Source: Candidatus Spongiihabitans sp. (lineage in GTDB: Bacteria; Pseudomonadota; Gammaproteobacteria; Arenicellales; Poriferihabitantaceae). Taken from it: 64,000 nucleotides of DNA. Shown one piece after another: positions 13,596-36,670 of the stretch. The notes below the pieces were generated by a model. That model did no database searches and was not told where the DNA came from. It saw nothing but the letters and a program-made list of their open reading frames with translations. The number at the start of each line of letters is the position of its first letter. The first letter of the stretch is position 1. Both the position numbers and the translations under genes were made by a program. The DNA lies in assembly GCF_965237845.1 (NCBI RefSeq), contig NZ_OZ250154.1, forward strand, positions 195,121 to 259,120. Direction: 5' to 3'.

Positions 13596-15285
13596 CGCAC
13601 CATTTTTAGTTTTCTTCATCGGCGCAGCTATCGTTCTGGCACTGCCGGGACGCTCAGAGCGATCCGGGCGATTACGAAAAATTGTGATGCTGGCAGTGCC
13701 GCTGGCAGGGTTAATCAATCTGCTGACCTTAGACCAGACCACGGTGTGGCAATTACAGTGGCTTGACCTTGACCTGGTGCTTTTCACCAGCGACCGATTA
13801 AGTTTTATTTTTGGCATACTGTTTCATATCGCCGCGATCATCGCCACAATCTATGCCTGGCATGTCAAAGACCGCCCCCAGCAAGCGGTCGCGCTATTGT
13901 ATCCCGGCAGTGCCCTTGGCATCGTTTTCGCCGGTGATTTTTTGACCCTGTTCGTATTTTGGGAATGCCTGGCGTTAACCTCGGTATTTTTTATCACCGC
14001 TAGGGCAACCCCGCGGGCAATTAAATCCGCGATCCGATATCTGGTGTTTCAGGTCGTGTCGGGCGTGCTCTTGTTGACCGGCAGCTTGTTGATGCTTCAC
14101 CAAACCGGCGGCATTGCGATTGGGCCGTTGGACATGACCGACCCCGGGGCGATATTTTTTCTGCTTGCTTTCGGCATAAAGGCGGCCTTCCCGATGTTGC
14201 ACAACTGGTTGACCGATGCCTATCCAGAAGCCACAGTCAGCGGCACAGTGTTTCTCGGCGCGTTCACCACCAAGGTCGCGGTCTACGTTTTAGCGCGAAC
14301 GTTCACGGGATTGGACGCATTGATTTACATCGGCATGGCGATGGCATGCTTCCCGATTTTCTACGCGGTCATCGAGAATGATTTAAGACGGGTGCTGAGT
14401 TACAGCATGATTAACCAGATTGGATTCATGGTTTGCGGCATCGGCATTGGCACCGAGCTGGCTGTGAACGGGGCCGTGGCGCATGCCTTCAACGATGTCA
14501 TTTTCAAGGGCTTGTTAATGATGTCTATGGGCGCAGTATTATTCCGAACCGGCGACATGCGCGCATCCAATCTTGGCGGGTTGTTCCGAACCATGCCAAA
14601 AACCACCGCGCTTTGTCTGGTCGGCGCAGCCTCGATTTCAGCGTTCCCGTTGTTTAGCGGATTCGTCAGCAAATCCATGGTGATGGCGGCGTTGCTGCTG
14701 CAACACCATGAATTCGTTTGGCTAGCCATGCTGTTTGCGTCTGCCGGGGTATTCCACCACGCCGGCATTAAAATTCCCTATTTCGCCTTCTTCGCCCACG
14801 ACTCCGGATTGCGTCCTGAAGAAGCCCCTCGGCACATGTTAATCGCCATGAGCATTGCCGCAGCGTTGTGTATTTTTGTCGGCAGTTTTCCGCAGTTGCT
14901 TTACCGCCACCTTCCATTTGCTGTGGACTATGCGCCTTTCGAGCTTCCGCATGTGGTTGAGCAGGTTCAACTGCTATTCTTTTCTGCCCTGGCCTTCATC
15001 TGGTTGCAGTTAAAAAACATCTACCCCGCGGAACTCAAATCCACCAACATCGACAGCGAATGGCTTTATCGAAAATTTTGGCCGGCGATTTATACTACAG
15101 CCTGTGCGATAGCGCAAAAACTGCACCTTGGAATTAACGGTTTCGCGTCAGCGACTGCGACGATGCTAACGCCGATGGCAAGAAAACAATCTTATGATTT
15201 GCTGATGCCCTGGTCGGTGCGCGCTATGCTCATGGTTGTCATGGCTTTCCTGGGTGTTGTGCTGGGGTTGTTTTACCTCGTCTAG
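13588..15285 (+). CDS. MrpD/MrpA/NuoL-family antiporter-like subunit (copy 3)
   Basis: The start was set at the ATG at 13588 (MINAPFLVFFIG...). The upstream 49 codons of the computed ORF overlap the 82-aa gene. Core motifs FWECLALTSVFFI and HNWLTDAYPEATVSGTVFL. Confidence 0.8.
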   Translation: MINAPFLVFFIGAAIVLALPGRSERSGRLRKIVMLAVPLAGLINLLTLDQTTVWQLQWLDLDLVLFTSDRLSFIFGILFHIAAIIATIYAWHVKDRPQQAVALLYPGSALGIVFAGDFLTLFVFWECLALTSVFFITARATPRAIKSAIRYLVFQVVSGVLLLTGSLLMLHQTGGIAIGPLDMTDPGAIFFLLAFGIKAAFPMLHNWLTDAYPEATVSGTVFLGAFTTKVAVYVLARTFTGLDALIYIGMAMACFPIFYAVIENDLRRVLSYSMINQIGFMVCGIGIGTELAVNGAVAHAFNDVIFKGLLMMSMGAVLFRTGDMRASNLGGLFRTMPKTTALCLVGAASISAFPLFSGFVSKSMVMAALLLQHHEFVWLAMLFASAGVFHHAGIKIPYFAFFAHDSGLRPEEAPRHMLIAMSIAAALCIFVGSFPQLLYRHLPFAVDYAPFELPHVVEQVQLLFFSALAFIWLQLKNIYPAELKSTNIDSEWLYRKFWPAIYTTACAIAQKLHLGINGFASATATMLTPMARKQSYDLLMPWSVRAMLMVVMAFLGVVLGLFYLV

Positions 15286-15316
15286 TTATTCTTAGAACGT
15301 GGCATCGAGTATAGAT
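15284..15316 (-). repeat. Copy of a dispersed intergenic repeat (CTATACTCGATGCCACGTTCTAAGAATAACTA on the minus strand)
   Basis: The same core GATGCCACGTTCT...AAGAAT is seen at 24110-24144, 28109-28180 and 28251-28322. Confidence 0.7.
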
Positions 15317-15427
15317 TTAATAAACTAATGTATTTTAATTCAGGCTCGTGGCCGTTCCTTGAAAATATTAGGGTTGCAACGTTGAGCTACTTGTCAGGGC
15401 ATTTGTAAATTATTGCAGCATCAATAG

Positions 15428-15492
15428 GGTTGACAATATAACCAATAAGGTTGACAATATTATTCTTTAAGGTTGACAATCAAGGTATTGAC
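15428..15492 (+). promoter_or_regulatory. Array of phased direct repeats (3 x GGTTGACAAT plus a degenerate 4th, AAGGTATTGAC) directly upstream of the wHTH gene
   Basis: Repeats at 15428-15437, 15449-15458 and 15471-15480, spaced 21-22 bp. A degenerate copy lies at 15482-15492, and the ATG is at 15495. Each box contains a TTGACA -35-like hexamer. Confidence 0.6.
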
Positions 15493-15494
15493 TT

Positions 15495-16526
15495 ATGGTA
15501 GGTATTCGTAAAAGAGGTGAAGATATCCGCCAATTTATATTAAATAATGTTGAGCATAACCCGAAAGATATAGTTGCTCTTACATCTCGTGCATACGATA
15601 TATCCAGACAGGCAGTAAACAAGCACATTAAACGTCTTGTTGAAAAAAACGCACTTTTAGAGCGTGGCGCAACCAGGAATAAGCGTTATATTTTGCATCC
15701 ATTAGTTAAATGGGAACACATCTATACTTTAAATGGCACTTTGGCAGAGGATGCGGTTTGGCGCGGAGATATTTCTGAGTTTATAAATGACTTGCCAGAT
15801 AACGTCATTGATATTTGGCACTATGGTTTTACTGAAATACTTAACAATGCAATTGACCACTCATCTGGCACGCAAGTACATATACAGATTACAAAAACTG
15901 CTACTACAACTGAAATCGTAATATATGACGATGGCGAAGGTATCTTTAAGAAAATTCAGCGCGAATTAGAATTGAGTGATGAGCGCCATTCAGTTTTAGA
16001 GCTGGCTAAAGGTAAATTAACAACTGACCCAGACAATCACACTGGTGAAGGGATTTTCTTTAGCTCACGTATGTTTGATGATTTTGCAATATTGTCTGGC
16101 AGTGTATGTTTTTCACACAAACATGATCAAGTTGAAGATTGGATTTTAGAGCGTCAAAAATTTCAATCTGGTACGGGTGTATTTATGGTGTTATTCAATA
16201 ACACAGCAAGAACACCAAAATCTGTCTTTGATAAGTTTACATCTGGAGATGATTACGGCTTTACCAAAACTGTCGTCCCAGTCCGATTAACACAGTACGG
16301 CCATGATAATCTGGTTTCTCGCTCTCAAGCTAAAAGACTGTTAGCGGGGGTTGAGAAATTTGAAACTGTTATTTTTGATTTTGATAATGTTGAAACGATT
16401 GGGCAAGCGTTTGCTGATGAAATATTTCGTGTTTTCAAATTGCAGCAACCAGATATGGAATTAATTTACTTGAATTCCAACGAGCAAGTAACACAAATGA
16501 TTACACGAGCCTTGTCGCGAGAGTAG
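15495..16526 (+). CDS. wHTH - GHKL/HATPase_c-like ATPase - STAS-like (DUF4325-type) protein
   Basis: 343 aa. N-terminal ArsR/MarR-like wHTH (ISRQAVNKHIKRLVEKNALL). GHKL N-box ILNNAIDHS, G1 box YDDGEGIF and G2 box HTGEGIFF. C-terminal VIFDFDNVETIGQAFADEIF resembles a STAS-like/DUF4325 domain. Confidence 0.65.
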   Translation: MVGIRKRGEDIRQFILNNVEHNPKDIVALTSRAYDISRQAVNKHIKRLVEKNALLERGATRNKRYILHPLVKWEHIYTLNGTLAEDAVWRGDISEFINDLPDNVIDIWHYGFTEILNNAIDHSSGTQVHIQITKTATTTEIVIYDDGEGIFKKIQRELELSDERHSVLELAKGKLTTDPDNHTGEGIFFSSRMFDDFAILSGSVCFSHKHDQVEDWILERQKFQSGTGVFMVLFNNTARTPKSVFDKFTSGDDYGFTKTVVPVRLTQYGHDNLVSRSQAKRLLAGVEKFETVIFDFDNVETIGQAFADEIFRVFKLQQPDMELIYLNSNEQVTQMITRALSRE

Positions 16527-16630
16527 CCCTAACGCTTCGCATCACAGATAGCAAAAAGTGGGGCGGCTGGAGCGTAGCGGAAGCCGCGGTGCTTTATGAT
16601 GCCCACTCCATTTGTAACTTGCGATAAAGA

Positions 16631-16650
16631 TGGGCCTTAACTGTAAGACC
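16631..16650. repeat. Palindromic motif copy (GGGCCTTAACTGTAAGACCC)
   Basis: An imperfect copy of the 22-bp palindrome GGGTCTTAACTAGTCAAGACCC found at 35836-35857 and, in part, at 18080-18101. The flanking GATGGG and CCCTTAT/CCCTAGAT are also similar. Confidence 0.75.
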
Positions 16651-16657
16651 CTTATCG

Positions 16658-16735
16658 ACAGTTTTCCGCAGTTACTTTACCGCCTCCTTTCATTTGCTGT
16701 GGGCTATGCGCCTTTCGAGCTTCCCTATGCTTGTA
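16658..16735 (+). pseudogene. Partial diverged copy (left arm plus core) of an internal segment of the last mrp gene
   Basis: CAGTTTTCCGCAGTTACTTTACCGCCTCCTTTCATTTGCTGTGGGCTATGCGCCTTTCGAGCTTCC aligns to 14883-14948 with a few mismatches. It encodes SFPQLLYRLLSFAVGYAPFELP versus SFPQLLYRHLPFAVDYAPFELP. Confidence 0.8.
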
Positions 16736-17331
16736 GCATCAAACGGTGTTTTATAAAGCTCATTTACTTGCCACAAACCACTTTTTACGATTTTTTCTTT
16801 TGGCGAACTATTGCCAAGCCAATCATTTGACGGTTTACATTCATCACACCTTGAGATTGTAGCGATTAGTTTTGATTCAATATCCAGCCGCTCTTCCTTG
16901 TTTTTTACTTCAAAGGTAGCGAACGAGAAATTGCCCTGGATGTACTGGCTAACCTGGTTTTCAATATTCTTTTGGTAATCAAAATCGATCAGCGAAGAGT
17001 ATTTATCTTTTGCCTTTTTTGTGACGAGATTACGCTCCCAGTATTTTAAAAAAGGATCATTGTGCTGGCTAAGTAAAGCCCTGCCAATATTCTTTCTGAA
17101 AATACTTCGATCTTTATTCTCGTTAAGGAAATGTTCCTCCAATCTTAAACGAAGTCGACTCTCTCCCGTGTGCGTACCTATTCTCACAATTCTTTCCTTC
17201 TGGTGCCCATACTCGCCTTTTTGAAACAAAACATAGATGCCATTCAATGGAATATTTGATGCCTCAAAGGGAAATTTATGCCTCTCAAGTTCATTGGCAA
17301 GTCTATGAACTGAAGAACATTCACTACTCAT
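16690..17331 (-). CDS. GIY-YIG-like nuclease-family protein (tentative)
   Basis: 213 aa. NGIYVLFQKGE...IVRIGTHTGESRLRLRLEEHF...IFRKNIGRAL resembles a GIY-YIG core. The C-terminal part contains CDECKPSNDWLGNSS...SGLWQVNEL. Its ATG overlaps the stop of the upstream gene (ATGA at 17328-17331). Confidence 0.5.
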   Translation of the reverse strand: MSSECSSVHRLANELERHKFPFEASNIPLNGIYVLFQKGEYGHQKERIVRIGTHTGESRLRLRLEEHFLNENKDRSIFRKNIGRALLSQHNDPFLKYWERNLVTKKAKDKYSSLIDFDYQKNIENQVSQYIQGNFSFATFEVKNKEERLDIESKLIATISRCDECKPSNDWLGNSSPKEKIVKSGLWQVNELYKTPFDATSIGKLERRIAHSK

Positions 17332-17807
17332 GTAACCAACCCCTTGAGCCTTTGTAGCTGCTCTCCAATACGCAGACCCTCAAGTGGTATTTGTGCATTC
17401 TTGATATGCGGCAACAAATACTTCCTATATTTATCTCCGGCTAGAAACGTAAACTCCGTTTCATTAATAGAGCAAACTTGCTTTATTTGATCAAGTACTC
17501 TACTTGCCCATTGTTTGATTTCATTTGAACGCATATTGTTCAGAGTTTGCTCATACGGCTCAATTTCCTGACCTAAAGGCAACAACCCATACTTTGCGGA
17601 AAGAATAAAGATTTTATCGGGTTCCAGTTTTTTTGCGTATTTCAGATTGAGTTTAAAGAGTGTACTGATGTACAGGTCCTTTGCCTTCGCACTGCGCGAA
17701 AGTTTTTTACTTACACATGAAATTAGAACTATCCGTTTTGGCATAACTTTTCTTTTGTGTGTCCGCTGAATGCTTTTGTTAGATTTATTTTCGAGTAATG
17801 CCCTCAA
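17328..17807 (-). CDS. DUF6884-like protein (tentative); the real start is probably the ATG at 17744
   Basis: The 159-aa ORF contains RIVLISCVSKK...AKDLYISTLF...IFILSAKYGLL...IEPYEQTL...FLAGDKYRKYL...PLEGLRIGEQLQRL, the pattern I associate with DUF6884. The N-terminal 21 codons overlap a gene fragment. Confidence 0.5.
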   Translation of the reverse strand: MRALLENKSNKSIQRTHKRKVMPKRIVLISCVSKKLSRSAKAKDLYISTLFKLNLKYAKKLEPDKIFILSAKYGLLPLGQEIEPYEQTLNNMRSNEIKQWASRVLDQIKQVCSINETEFTFLAGDKYRKYLLPHIKNAQIPLEGLRIGEQLQRLKGLVT

Positions 17808-17988
17808 TAGAACTCACAGGTCCCATCGCAGATATTTGTACTCTGAGTTCGTTCTTTAGGATGAAGCCACCGTTTTCTTCACTTGTTTTCAACAACTCCC
17901 AACGCACAAAATCAGTTCTAAGTTTCTCTTTTGCAGTTTGGATTGCCTGAGCCAGTGCCTCATCAAAACTTCCATTTTGAGAAACACC
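17785..17988 (-). pseudogene. Start-less dodecin-like fragment
   Basis: An open frame GVSQNGSFDEALAQAIQTAKEKLRTDFVRWELLKTSEENGGFILKNELRVQISA resembles the dodecin fold consensus (GsS..SfedA...A..tlrn..w.ev.e.rG....G). It has no start codon and a stop immediately upstream. Confidence 0.3.
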
Positions 17989-18055
17989 TTAAAACCTCTC
18001 TAAATTTCTTCTCCGTAATTCGGGAACGATTGTAATACTTGTTTTTCCTTTTCAT
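17963..18055 (-). pseudogene. 30-codon ORF resembling the N-terminus of a small transposase-like protein (IS1595-type?)
   Basis: MKRKNKYYNRSRITEKKFREVLRCF... resembles N-termini I recall from IS-associated proteins. It runs out of frame into the dodecin-like fragment. Very tentative. Confidence 0.2.
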
Positions 18056-18079
18056 AACTAGTACTTTAAGCAATTTTTA

Positions 18080-18101
18080 GTTGCTTAACTAGTCAAGACC
18101 C
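18080..18101. repeat. Palindromic motif copy (GTTGCTTAACTAGTCAAGACCC) exactly at the truncation point of intI
   Basis: 18 of 22 nt (CTTAACTAGTCAAGACCC) are identical to 35840-35857. IntI homology starts at 18102. Confidence 0.8.
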
Positions 18102-18839
18102 TTGGTATTTATGTATAAGCAGGTGTTGGATATGAAGCCACCCTGGGTAACCGATGTGGTTCGTGCCAAGCCTAAGAAAAATATCCCTGTGGTATTAACG
18201 CGTGCTGAGGTGGTACGGGTGTTGTCGCATCTAAAAGGGCGTTATTATTTAATGGGACAACTGCTTTATGGCGCGGGGCTGCGGTTAATGGAGGTGGTGC
18301 GGTTGCGCGTTAAGGATATTGATTTTGGTTATAAATCGATTATTGTGCGTGATGGCAAGGGCAATAAAGATCGAGTAGTGATGTTGCCTGGTAAATTGAT
18401 TAAACCTTTACAAAGCGTTTTAAAAGAGCGCAAGCAGGTGTTTGATCAAGATTTAGCGAATGGTGTAGGCAGTGTTTATCTGCCTAATGCCCTGGCTAAA
18501 AAATATCCCAATGCTCAGAATGAGTGGATTTGGCAATTTGTATTTGCCTCACCGAATCTGTCAGCAGACCCGCGTACCGGTGTTGTGCGCCGTCATCATA
18601 TTTATGATCAATCTATTCAAAGAATGATTAAGCAGGCAACGCGTGATGGGCGCATTAGCAAAAAAGTCAGCCCGCATACTTTACGGCATTCTTTTGCTAC
18701 GCATTTATTAGAAACCGGTTATGATATTCGCACTATTCAAGAATTACTTGGGCATAAACATGTTGAGACTACGATGATTTACACGCATGTATTAAAACAA
18801 GGTGGGCAAGGGGTGCAAAGTCCATTAGATGTCTTATGA
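18102..18839 (+). pseudogene. intI: Integron integrase IntI, 5'-truncated (about 85-90 N-terminal residues missing)
   Basis: 245 aa collinear with the C-terminal three quarters of IntI1. It includes the integron-specific insertion [42 protein letters not shown] and the catalytic R...K...HTLRHSFAT...LLGH...MIYTHV. The frame is closed by TAG at 18090. Confidence 0.85.
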
Positions 18840-18950
18840 GTTATATGGGATGGATTTAGTTATGCTTCCCGGCTTGAGGCGGAAATACGGGACACCTACA
18901 AAATATTGACTCATGTCAGGCGACCGATAAGCCGGATGTTTCGTGGATGT

Positions 18951-19009
18951 CCTGTGGACTATGCGCCTTTCGATCTTTCCCATGTGGTCAAGCAGGTTCA
19001 ACTGCTGTT
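18951..19009 (+). pseudogene. Partial diverged copy (core plus right arm) of the same internal mrp segment
   Basis: CTGTGGACTATGCGCCTTTCGATCTTTCCCATGTGGTCAAGCAGGTTCAACTGCTGTTC aligns to 14921-14979. Confidence 0.8.
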
Positions 19010-19040
19010 CCCATTAGAGCAATGACTGAGATTTTCGACA

Positions 19041-20250: not shown

Positions 20251-20787
20251 TCAGGATTTACGCAATATCAGCATGAGGGCGAGCGTGGTTAAAACCGCCA
20301 GCCAAATCAAACTCCAGCCGGGCATGGAAATTCCAAACCAGGTCCAGGAAACTTCAGCGCATTCTCCTGCGCCTTTGAATACGGTTTCAAGCACTTTGCT
20401 GAACGGAAAAACCTCAAGCATATAATCAAGCCCAGGACCGCATTCGGGAACCTGATCCGCGGGCAGGCTTTGCAGCCACACGTGGCGGGCGGCAATGCCA
20501 AGACCCAGCACTCCGCAAACGCTGGCTAGAAATCCGTATAGCTTGCGGCCAACGTTGGTTGGGTTGTGTAAAAAACTTGCCAGAAACACAACCCCCATGC
20601 TGGTAAATGCGACGCGCTGGAAAATACATAACGGGCAAGGGTCTAAACCTTCGATATATTGAAAATAAAGAGCGATGGCAATCAGCAGCGCGCAGGCGAT
20701 AAACCCGATGAAAGAAAGTGATCGCGAAGAAATTGAAGGTGATGTCATAATGAATGAGGCGCTAATCGATTCTGCCTGATTGAACAT
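20251..20787 (-). CDS. dsbB: Disulfide bond formation protein B
   Basis: 178 aa, 4 TM, CPLCIFQR first Cys pair and a periplasmic-loop Cys pair (PECGPG...GECAEV). The start may be the internal Met 13 codons downstream. Confidence 0.8.
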   Translation of the reverse strand: MFNQAESISASFIMTSPSISSRSLSFIGFIACALLIAIALYFQYIEGLDPCPLCIFQRVAFTSMGVVFLASFLHNPTNVGRKLYGFLASVCGVLGLGIAARHVWLQSLPADQVPECGPGLDYMLEVFPFSKVLETVFKGAGECAEVSWTWFGISMPGWSLIWLAVLTTLALMLILRKS

Positions 20788-20800
20788 GCTTCATTTCCAC

Positions 20801-21022
20801 GCCTCGAGTGGTTATCTCTGGTTCGGGCGCGAGTGTGCTTTGTAAGAAGAACAGGGTCAAATGCTGGAAGGCTCGGTACTCGTTCCTGAAAAATATTCAT
20901 GCCCGAAGTGCGCCTCGAGTGGTTATCTCTGGTTCGGGCGCGAGTGTGCTTTGTAAGAAGAACGGGGTCAAATGCTGGAAGGCTCGGTACTCGTTCCTGA
21001 AAAATATTCATGCCCGAAGTGC
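20801..21022. repeat. Intergenic tandem duplication, 2 x 111 bp (1 mismatch)
   Basis: Unit gcctcgagtggttatctctggttcgggcgcgagtgtgctttgtaagaagaac(a/g)gggtcaaatgctggaaggctcggtactcgttcctgaaaaatattcatgcccgaagtgc occupies 20801-20911 and 20912-21022. Confidence 0.95.
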
Positions 21023-21037
21023 GCCGGTTTTGAATCG

Positions 21038-21781
21038 CTAAGGCGATATGCTGCGCCCGCCATCCACATTGATTACCTGTCCGGTGATATAGTTCGAATT
21101 TGCCAGTAAAAAATGGATGGTTTTGGCGATGTCTTCGGGTTCGCCGGCGCGCTTTAACGGGGTTTTTGAAATCATTCTTTGATGGGAAATTTCGTCGGTG
21201 TCGTTTTCAGGCCAAAGAATAGCGCCCGGGGCTATGGCATTGACTCGTATTTCAGGCCCCAGCTCATTGGCCAGGGATTTGGTTAACGATACCAGTCCGG
21301 CTTTTGATGCCGAATATATTGCGTAGTCTAAAAGGGGACGCTGCGCGTAGATGTCGGTAATGTTAATTATGCAACCATTTTGTTTCTTTAAATAGGGCGC
21401 TACCGCCTGTGAAAGAAAGTACGGGGCTTTGAGATTGGTATCCATGATGGTTTGCCATTGGCTTTCCTTGGACGAGGCAATCGGGGTGGGGAAAAATGCC
21501 GATGCATTGTTAACCAATGCATCGAGTTGGCCGAGCGCATTAACCGCTTCGCGGATGAGATATTTTACTTTGGCAATATCTCCAAGGTTTCCCTGGATCA
21601 ATCTCACCGAATCAGGTCGTATTTCGCAAAGCTCCGACCGAATTTGCTCGGCATCAACCGCACTATTGTTAAAATGAATAATGATACGCATGTCATGTTG
21701 GTGTAAATACCTGGCCGTGCAAGCGCCAATCCGGCGGCAGCCACCGGTTATTAACACAACTTTATTTTCAAGGTGATTCAT
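21038..21781 (-). CDS. folM: Short-chain dehydrogenase/reductase, pteridine reductase / dihydromonapterin reductase-like
   Basis: 247 aa with VVLITGGCRRIG Rossmann motif and YSASKAG catalytic motif. The gene symbol is tentative. Confidence 0.65.
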   Translation of the reverse strand: MNHLENKVVLITGGCRRIGACTARYLHQHDMRIIIHFNNSAVDAEQIRSELCEIRPDSVRLIQGNLGDIAKVKYLIREAVNALGQLDALVNNASAFFPTPIASSKESQWQTIMDTNLKAPYFLSQAVAPYLKKQNGCIINITDIYAQRPLLDYAIYSASKAGLVSLTKSLANELGPEIRVNAIAPGAILWPENDTDEISHQRMISKTPLKRAGEPEDIAKTIHFLLANSNYITGQVINVDGGRSISP

Positions 21782-35835: not shown

Positions 35836-35857
35836 GGGTCTTAACTAGTCAAGACCC
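35836..35857. repeat. Perfect-armed 22-bp palindrome GGGTCTTAACTAGTCAAGACCC
   Basis: The 7-bp arms GGGTCTT/AAGACCC flank AACTAGTC. Related copies occur at 16631-16650 and 18080-18101. Confidence 0.85.
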
Positions 35858-36028: not shown

Positions 36029-36274
36029 ATGCTAAACACCGCCCACAGAACCAACATCGTTTTAGATGAATCTATCGTCCAGGAAGCCCTAAAACTCAGC
36101 AAACTAAAAACTAAGCGAGCTTTGATAGATACTGCCTTGAGGGAGTTTATCAGCAACCATAAACCCAAAAATAGCATGGCGGCATTATTAAAATCATTGA
36201 ATGGCGAAAGCCCTTTTTATGATGACTACGATTATAAGGCGATGCGTGTTAATCCACACCTACCCAAAGGCTAA
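36029..36274 (+). CDS. vapB: Type II antitoxin, VapB family
   Basis: 81 aa, RTNIVLDESIVQEALKLSKLKTKRALIDTALREFI. Lies immediately upstream of a PIN gene. Confidence 0.8.
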   Translation: MLNTAHRTNIVLDESIVQEALKLSKLKTKRALIDTALREFISNHKPKNSMAALLKSLNGESPFYDDYDYKAMRVNPHLPKG

Positions 36275-36277
36275 CCT

Positions 36278-36670
36278 ATGTATCTGGCTGATACCTCAAT
36301 CTGGATTGACATACTCAATAATAACGCAAGTAATAACAACAAAGAATTATTTGCATCTGGAAAATTGGGGCTAACTTCCACGATTTATCTTGAAGTGTTG
36401 CAAGGCTCTAAAAATACAGTGCTATTCAAGAAAATCAAACAGGTGCTACTTGAGCAAAAATTTTATTACCTCAAAGACCAAAAAGAAAGCTACGAACAAG
36501 CCGCCCTCATCTACTCAAAATGCCGTAAAAAAGGCATCACCATCCGCGCCAGCATCGATTGCCTCATCGCCCAATGTGCCATCGAAAACGACTTGATTTT
36601 ATTACACAACGATCAAGATTTTGAGCGCATTGCCAGCGTTATCCCAGAATTTAACCAAACAATATGCTAG
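36278..36670 (+). CDS. vapC: PIN-domain ribonuclease toxin VapC
   Basis: 130 aa, MYLADTSIWID (first acidic residue)...EVLQG...IDCLIAQCAI...LLHNDQDFERI. Confidence 0.8.
   Translation: MYLADTSIWIDILNNNASNNNKELFASGKLGLTSTIYLEVLQGSKNTVLFKKIKQVLLEQKFYYLKDQKESYEQAALIYSKCRKKGITIRASIDCLIAQCAIENDLILLHNDQDFERIASVIPEFNQTIC

Follow-up and report, generated by a model that had tools for sequence, protein, structure and literature searches.

The PDC systems are 145 predicted candidates embedded in BREX, DISARM or type I restriction-modification (RM) loci, which were placed in PADLOC for future study and are predictions only (Payne et al. 2024, bioRxiv 10.1101/2024.01.29.577857). One of these candidates, PDC-M57, corresponds to the gene pair described here, which occupies 16690-17744 on the minus strand of a 64-kb stretch of contig NZ_OZ250154.1 from Candidatus Spongiihabitans sp. 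(the window; all positions below refer to it unless another contig is named). The upstream gene, gene A, encodes a protein of the DUF6884 family, and the downstream gene, gene B, encodes a putative GIY-YIG-like nuclease. A full-text literature search for the name 'PDC-M57' found no paper.

According to the Pfam paper, CxxxK and LSAxxG are the family motifs of DUF6884, and an AlphaFold3 model of the Bacillus subtilis member YfjM has a base flipped into a conserved pocket. YfjM is encoded by a stand-alone gene, whereas protein A is always coupled to a nuclease. Distant relatives of DUF6884 are the DNA-binding stress protein YaaA of Escherichia coli and, in the Dpd 7-deazaguanine DNA-modification system, DpdC; both are about twice the size of protein A. 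Integron cassettes have been described as reservoirs of defence systems (Kieffer et al. 2025; Darracq et al. 2025; Getz et al. 2025, cited in bioRxiv 10.64898/2026.03.17.712381), and the A-B pair is not mentioned in them.

Results and Discussion

Two overlapping genes on the minus strand

The genes were delimited by inspection of the open reading frames (ORFs) of the window, with the following result:

17744 to 17328, minus strand: gene A, 138 amino acids, DUF6884 / PDC-M57A, with CxxxK and LSAxxG motifs and a predicted YaaA-like fold (Pfam, PADLOC, homologues, AlphaFold2 and Foldseek)
17331 to 16690, minus strand: gene B, 213 amino acids, GIY_YIG_3 / PDC-M57B, with a GIY-YIG-like core and a C-terminal module (PADLOC, the PF26468 label, alignments and AlphaFold2)
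17328 to 17331, minus strand: ATGA stop/start overlap of the two genes (sequence; overlaps are conserved among relatives)

The reading frame 5' of gene A stays open back to a TTG codon at 17807, and the initial annotation had given the pair the span 16690-17807. All of the 120 gene A homologues listed among the matches are about 138 amino acids long and align from the ATG at 17744. The start of gene A was therefore moved to this ATG, with a product of 138 amino acids, and the end of gene B was kept. The peptide motifs that had been quoted for the two products were all found, namely RIVLISC, LSAKYGLL, PY, AGDKYR and PLEGLRIGEQL in protein A, and GIYVLF and CDECKPSNDWLG...SGLWQ in protein B.

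The TGA stop codon of gene A (17330-17328) and the ATG start codon of gene B (17331-17329) have the four nucleotides ATGA in common, as had been read from the sequence, implying that translation of the two genes is coupled. The overlap is not a matter of chance, since such overlaps recur in related loci, most of which have A and B overlapping by 1-38 nt (exactly 4 nt in 22 of 66). The last 10 codons of gene B (16722-16693) are non-native, and represent the antisense strand of a fragment of an mnhD-like antiporter gene.

The pair is catalogued as PDC-M57

A PADLOC run, which was among the checks proposed in the initial annotation, matched both proteins. Protein A matched PDC-M57A with an E value of 3.6e-60 (its residues 3-135 aligning to positions 2-134 of the 138 in the profile), and protein B matched PDC-M57B with an E value of 2.9e-95 (residues 1-208 of 211). 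The layout is also that of PDC-M57, gene B adjoining gene A on the same strand and in the same order, with the 4-nt overlap. Judged by these profile matches the pair is the PADLOC candidate system PDC-M57, and hence not new. The initial annotation knew of no assigned function for the pair, and had listed a known annotated system among the outcomes that would speak against it. The pair does already have an entry as PDC-M57A/B, and the entry is that of a candidate only. The window pair shows no structural difference from PDC-M57, but its setting is an integron remnant, with no RM system enclosing it.

Protein A

Protein A matched the Pfam family DUF6884 (PF21818) with an E value of 1.8e-46 and a score of 158.1 bits, compared to a gathering cut-off of 30, in line with the family originally proposed for it. 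The CxxxK motif corresponds to C10-VSK-K14 and the LSAxxG motif to L48-SAKY-G53. Residues C10, K14, L48, S49 and A50 do not vary among 24 homologues of protein A, and G53 hardly does. The AlphaFold2 model of protein A (pLDDT 92) had one significant neighbour in the PDB when searched with Foldseek, E. coli YaaA (5CAJ; E 6.6e-4, probability 1.0, TM 0.54), which agrees with what the Pfam paper reports on DUF6884. Weak matches (E 2e-4) were obtained to the PADLOC models of DpdC, and neither dpdA nor dpdB was found beside the DpdC-like gene A in the low-GC islet that holds the pair. Protein A is a clear DUF6884 protein with, as modeled, a YaaA-like alpha/beta fold.

Protein B

The family of protein B carries the precomputed Pfam label PF26468 (GIY_YIG_3). 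Protein B of the window had no match in local Pfam or NCBIfam, and searches of PDB sequences with protein B alone and with a 36-member profile gave nothing relevant. When 36 diverse members of the family were scanned singly, sub-threshold matches were observed to DUF123 (in 11), GIY_YIG_2 (in 8) and GIY-YIG (in 7). The best of these E values were 2e-4 to 6e-4, and the recurrent families all belong to the GIY-YIG clan.

In the AlphaFold2 model of protein B (pLDDT 91) a beta-hairpin (31-52) is followed by two helices and an insert, and then by a strand (135-141) and a helix; this order fits the GIY-YIG core. The GIY motif at 31-33, in which Y33 is not invariant, and the second motif are both located on the predicted hairpin (E31-42/E45-52). 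Alignments of the family showed an invariant R63 and a nearly invariant H67 (R63xxxH67), a spacing that we take to resemble the one in I-TevI. Of the residues that might serve as the acidic metal ligand, E124 is nearly invariant as well, and E152 is invariant in the close subfamily only.

When compared to the GIY-YIG nucleases (the UvrC N-terminal domain, I-TevI, and restriction enzymes, e.g. Eco29kI), protein B is alike in its beta-beta-alpha-alpha...beta-alpha order, in the GIY motif, in having an invariant Arg with a His four residues on, and in its weak matches confined to the clan. It differs from them by an RIG motif, a large insert, and a C-terminal module rich in Cys and Trp, and it has no significant match to solved or viral predicted structures. 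In the Foldseek search against BFVD all matches with GIY-YIG in their name had E > 0.3.

The C-terminal module, whose Cys content had been pointed out earlier, is real and family-specific, and comprises C162xxC165, W171 and G185-L-W187. Across the family W171 is invariant, and S168, G173, G185, L186 and W187 are nearly so. A zinc site could be made up by C5, H9, C162 and C165, which do not vary within the close subfamily and are missing in some distant members. Taken at the level of the superfamily, protein B is probably a divergent GIY-YIG-like nuclease. At that level the earlier GIY-YIG-like call holds (PF26468 label, clan-only matches), whereas neither a Pfam match of protein B itself nor a fold match was obtained.

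The A and B families form one unit that is widely transferred

A pattern scan of one genome per species, covering about 185,579 species genomes, detected relatives of protein B in at least 374 of them. The locus analyses rest on the best 80 of the 374 (41 archaeal and 39 bacterial), which are 54-73% identical to the window protein. Relatives were found in Desulfobacteraceae, Spirulina, Marinomonas, Shewanella, Nitrospirales, Methanosarcina, Woesearchaeota, Pacearchaeota and bacteria of the candidate phyla radiation (CPR).

Of the 80 loci, 70 have gene A directly upstream of gene B in the same orientation, and in five of the remaining ten gene B is preceded by a YaaA- or DUF6884-type gene (75/80 in total). 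The pairwise identities of A and B were correlated over 63 loci (r = 0.55, with a shuffle maximum of 0.18). An exhaustive search gave 1,256 cluster representatives matching protein B, and in about one third of the best 150 of these the B domain begins around residue 120-270 of a longer protein. Ten representatives were scanned; nine were long, and all nine had DUF6884 just N-terminal to the B domain. Some of these A-B fusions also have a C-terminal DUF7662, an N-terminal PIF1-type helicase, or tetratricopeptide (TPR) repeats. From the upstream linkage, the overlaps, the correlated identities and the fusions it follows that the A and B families form one functional unit, and the co-occurrence of the two families, which the initial annotation had put forward as a check, is thus strongly borne out.

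In 64 of 71 loci the pair has a lower GC content than its flanks (mean difference -5.7 points). Of 60 loci, 7-8 have a tRNA gene at a distance of no more than 300 bp, and all of these belong to small archaeal or CPR genomes. There is no conserved third partner in these loci, and the neighbours vary from locus to locus. Protein B is absent from all 50,697 phage records searched, and was found in 3 of 2.9 million IMG/VR contigs, in a single prophage-like element in which A is also present. A-like genes alone occur in 33 phage records (PHROG 5935). A stand-alone DUF6884 gene is found even in a phage of 26 genes, Microbacterium phage Naby (MN234191.1, 17.4 kb), where it has neither a nuclease partner nor deazaguanine genes. 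Among two-gene modules of uncharacterised function the pair ranks with the best conserved and the most widely transferred, and is common to proteobacteria, cyanobacteria, CPR bacteria, methanogens and DPANN archaea.

In one contig (L082; GCA_004196315.1, SDBT01001746.1) the pair, a close relative of that in the window, is surrounded by SIR2_2, CAP12-PCTIR_TIR, HIRAN and DUF4357 genes. Between the genes of this contig there are repeated intergenic modules of about 450 bp, whose copies are 86-91% identical and are not classical attC sites.

Integron carriage in two gammaproteobacterial lineages

Two features of the window relate the pair to an integron:

18102 to 18839, plus strand: integron integrase (intI) pseudogene, 5'-truncated and divergent from the pair (TIGR02249)
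16527 to 16618, minus strand: degenerate attC-like site of 92 nt in cassette orientation (homology to a hairpin of Thioalkalivibrio nitratireducens)

The intI gene, to the right of gene A, matched TIGR02249 with an E value of 3.3e-112 over profile positions 72-315 only. Since the match begins at position 72, the N-terminal domain (the first ~71 residues) is missing. A longer intI N-terminus is present in the sister contig L081 and in the public runs X5 and X6. Scans with the strict pattern RYYYAAC...GTTRRRY plus a stem found no attC site in the window, in L081 or in L082, and no attI site was found at the window integron. A candidate attC site in L081 (2523-2610) was rejected, as it does not fold. 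The attC-like site of the window was detected only through its homology to the Thioalkalivibrio hairpin, which extends over the arm CTTTTTGC..GTGATGCG..GTTA. Its R'' box is degenerate, it folds no better than shuffled sequences (z -0.5), and foreign DNA lies between the site and gene B.

In T. nitratireducens (CP003989.2, 1064337-1078972) the pair is the first unit beside a divergent, split intI gene that is 58% identical to the window intI, and the attC-like sequence following the pair forms a TAAC...GTTA hairpin (z -3.0). Directly after this hairpin comes a gene for a group II intron reverse transcriptase, and further on there is a gene with a metallo-beta-lactamase fold and a weak Anti-Pycsar match, followed by a DruA gene.

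With its truncated intI and degenerate attC, the window integron is dead. In at least two gammaproteobacterial lineages, integrons carry the pair as cargo, or once did so. The cassette orientation ascribed to the pair from the outset is therefore a fair description, given the truncated intI, the attC-like remnant and the integron-like layout in Thioalkalivibrio, but it applies to an integron that is dead and to an attC site that is degenerate. The pair resembles the integron-cassette defence systems in being a small, promoter-poor unit beside intI, in cassette orientation and with an attC-like site, and in Thioalkalivibrio it also holds the first position. It differs from them in that the window integron is dead. 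The integron carriage of the pair in at least two lineages, together with the local rearrangements described below, is what is new here, and it is a modest addition. It provides a vehicle for the spread of the pair, and is in keeping with recent work that regards integrons as stores of defence genes.

Proposed function and alternatives

What the data settle is the architecture, in which a small, putatively base-flipping DNA reader or enzyme is linked one-to-one with a putative nuclease of a single active site, the two moving as an accessory unit. We tentatively favor a reader-plus-nuclease module that defends against foreign DNA. The pair would then be a self-contained, horizontally mobile two-gene module targeting DNA, and the cargo of a decayed chromosomal integron. 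Protein A, with its YaaA/DpdC-like fold, would bind duplex DNA and flip a nucleotide into the pocket with the Cys-x3-Lys and LSAxxG motifs, thus serving as the specificity or sensor subunit. Protein B, which would be made in step with A by way of the ATGA overlap (and is fused to it elsewhere), would cut near the recognised site. The target may be foreign DNA with a feature absent from the host, e.g. an unusual or modified base. Defence is favored because of the basis on which the PDC candidates were predicted, the patchy, AT-rich and horizontal distribution, the carriage by integron and islet, the fusions to helicase and TPR repeats, and the absence of B from viruses. Defence genes next to the pair in some loci (SIR2_2, CAP12-PCTIR_TIR and HIRAN; DruA; type I S/R, McrBC, GmrSD and MADS) provide supporting context.

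Several observations weigh against a defence role of this kind. Gammaproteobacterial and DPANN archaeal sequences are 56-90% identical, a degree of conservation that is unusual for a defence gene. The immediate neighbours of the pair are mostly housekeeping genes, and defence genes are a small minority (the defence or repair genes in question being type I S and R subunits, McrBC, GmrSD, MADS, UvrD-like, HhH-GPD and MGMT). A proteomic screen recovered B. subtilis YfjM preferentially on DNA baits with abasic sites or ribonucleotides, a result that points to repair. With regard to the nuclease, the second motif of protein B is R50-I-G52 and not YIG, the Tyr being replaced by Arg, and the Foldseek search of its model against the PDB gave no match with E < 1 and no GIY-YIG structure. 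An hhalign comparison of the B family with the family of a mini GIY-YIG protein from L081, whose alignment is too shallow to be decisive, gave a probability of 1.6%, with only the RLxxH helix aligned. Finally, gene B of this strain ends in foreign sequence, and the DNA upstream of gene A showed no clear promoter; because of the foreign tail and the lack of an evident promoter it is uncertain if the pair is active in this strain.

The result with YfjM belongs to the main rival explanation, a DNA repair module in which A would recognise a universal lesion (an abasic site, a ribonucleotide or a damaged base) by base flipping and B would incise, comparable to the GIY-YIG domain of UvrC in nucleotide excision repair. 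The base flipped into the conserved pocket of the AlphaFold3 model, the role of YaaA, the closest solved fold, as a DNA-binding stress protein, the very high conservation from bacteria to archaea, and the few repair genes among the neighbours (HhH-GPD, MGMT, UvrD) are all consistent with repair. On the other hand, the pair is rare and patchy, AT-rich compared to its host in 64 of 71 loci, and located in islets, beside integrases, integron remnants or tRNAs, and not in repair operons; at the present locus it is strain-variable accessory DNA. We regard a repair function as possible, though somewhat less likely than defence. The high conservation and the very wide horizontal spread could also suit a selfish mobile cassette with B as a homing-type GIY-YIG endonuclease and A as an accessory factor, spreading by its own cleavage and not by any benefit to the host. 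GIY-YIG enzymes do include homing endonucleases, the weak top matches of B in BFVD are named intron-associated or GIY-YIG endonucleases (albeit with E > 0.3), and the unit is compact and close to tRNAs in 7-8 of 60 loci. Such a cassette is nevertheless unlikely, as the pair was found neither in an intron or intein nor flanked by a conserved target, the neighbours differing in almost every locus. Furthermore, phages, in which homing GIY-YIG genes thrive, are essentially devoid of B, and in two lineages the integron machinery explains the movement.

The initial annotation had suggested a two-gene defence or toxin-immunity module, and it is the defence part of this suggestion that we retain. If B were a toxic nuclease and A its antitoxin, the two could act as a type II toxin-antitoxin pair stabilising the integron array, which would agree with their being small, overlapping genes in an integron context, where toxin-antitoxin cassettes are common. 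However, the B domain is part of a longer protein in about one third of the best 150 representatives, the nine long proteins scanned were all A-B fusions, and protein A, which in phages occurs alone, has a conserved pocket like that of an enzyme. Stable A-B fusions are common and would be incompatible with a separable, labile antitoxin; this reading is hardly tenable and was rejected on account of the fusions. As to the nature of a foreign target, PDC-M57 could be a modification-dependent restriction system, in which A would be a miniature reader of DpdC/YaaA type for a 7-deazaguanine-type or other hypermodified phage base and would license the GIY-YIG subunit to cut, and the stand-alone DUF6884 proteins of phages would be writer-side or decoy counterparts. 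This version, which we consider very unlikely, is based on the weak DpdC matches of protein A and on Fusobacterium phage phiFN37, where the closest phage homologue of A (50% identity) is encoded between a queuine-tRNA-ribosyltransferase-like gene and a queuosine-precursor transporter gene. No DpdA-type or queuosine neighbours were found in the six other phage contexts (1/7 overall).

The islet and its rearrangements

The pair (GC 0.39-0.41) is located in a 3.7-kb islet at about 15,300-19,000 with a GC content of 0.39-0.43, compared to about 0.50 for the region. The islet is flanked by an Mrp/Mnh-type antiporter operon on one side and a Rieske oxygenase gene on the other. A defence-rich context, which had also been suggested, was not found at this locus. 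Further features of the islet are:

17785 to 17998, minus strand: 3' remnant (the last ~70 codons) of a 307-amino-acid gene that is intact in L081 (comparison with L081)
17999 to 18101, no strand: 103-bp segment ending in a near-palindrome, which replaces 1.9 kb of relatives and is repeated elsewhere in the genome (contig comparison, ~2x depth)
16632 to 16651, minus strand: terminator-like hairpin 38 nt past the stop codon of gene B, a copy of the 22-bp near-palindrome (fold z -2.8)
16652 to 16724, plus strand: mnhD-like fragment of 73 bp (92% match to its source at 14876-14948), whose antisense strand gives gene B its last 10 codons and stop codon (sequence match)
18952 to 19010, plus strand: second mnhD-like fragment (source 14921-14979, 90% match), which forms a 28-38 bp direct repeat with 16692-16729 (sequence match)
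15495 to 16526, plus strand: gene with winged helix-turn-helix (wHTH), HATPase_c and DUF4325 (STAS-like) domains, in the opposite orientation to the pair (Pfam; no PADLOC match)

The sister contig L081 is 97.8% identical to the window, and has 1.9 kb of extra DNA between gene A and intI. This DNA comprises the longer part of intI, an ORF of 85 amino acids, a mini GIY-YIG gene of 93 amino acids, and the 307-amino-acid gene. In the window its place is taken by the 103 bp at 17999-18101, which end in a near-palindrome of 22 bp. Contigs assembled from public runs exhibit both forms (1.9 kb and 103 bp) among related strains, and the pair is strain-variable accessory DNA here. In the run of the source strain the depth over 17982-18101 was about twice that of the surroundings, and this segment is therefore a dispersed repeat.

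The mini GIY-YIG gene (L081:2235-2516) is located between intI and the pair. At least 425 clusters of proteins of about 90 amino acids, 70-90% identical, make up its family, which is found mostly on short metagenome contigs and looks like cassette cargo. The wHTH-HATPase_c-DUF4325 gene is not part of the module, and is not a recurrent neighbour of the pair elsewhere. Just 5' of this gene, at 15425-15480, there are three direct repeats of 21-22 bp (TAAGGTTGACAAT) with a TTGACA box in each, which look like an operator or promoter array.

The two overlapping mnhD-like fragments (together corresponding to 14876-14979 of the source) are in direct orientation and bracket gene B, gene A and the intI remnant. 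No model was found that joins both fragments with the attC-like site, which lies outside them. The 22-bp near-palindrome, GGGYCTTAAC..GTCAAGACCC, is present at three junctions of accessory DNA, i.e. after gene B (16632-16651), at the end of the 103-bp replacement beside intI (18080-18101), and before a low-GC VapB/VapC pair (35836-35857). It may be a terminator, the end of a miniature inverted-repeat transposable element, or a recombination site. The VapB antitoxin (81 amino acids) and the PIN-domain VapC protein (130 amino acids) are encoded at 36029-36670, in an islet with a GC content of 0.37 between an acyl-CoA dehydrogenase gene and valS. Downstream of dsbB, the ORF at 20745-21041 contains a unit of about 37 residues (MNIFQERVPSLPAFDPVLLTKHTRARTRDNHSRR) twice, which indicates a tandem duplication of about 110 bp.

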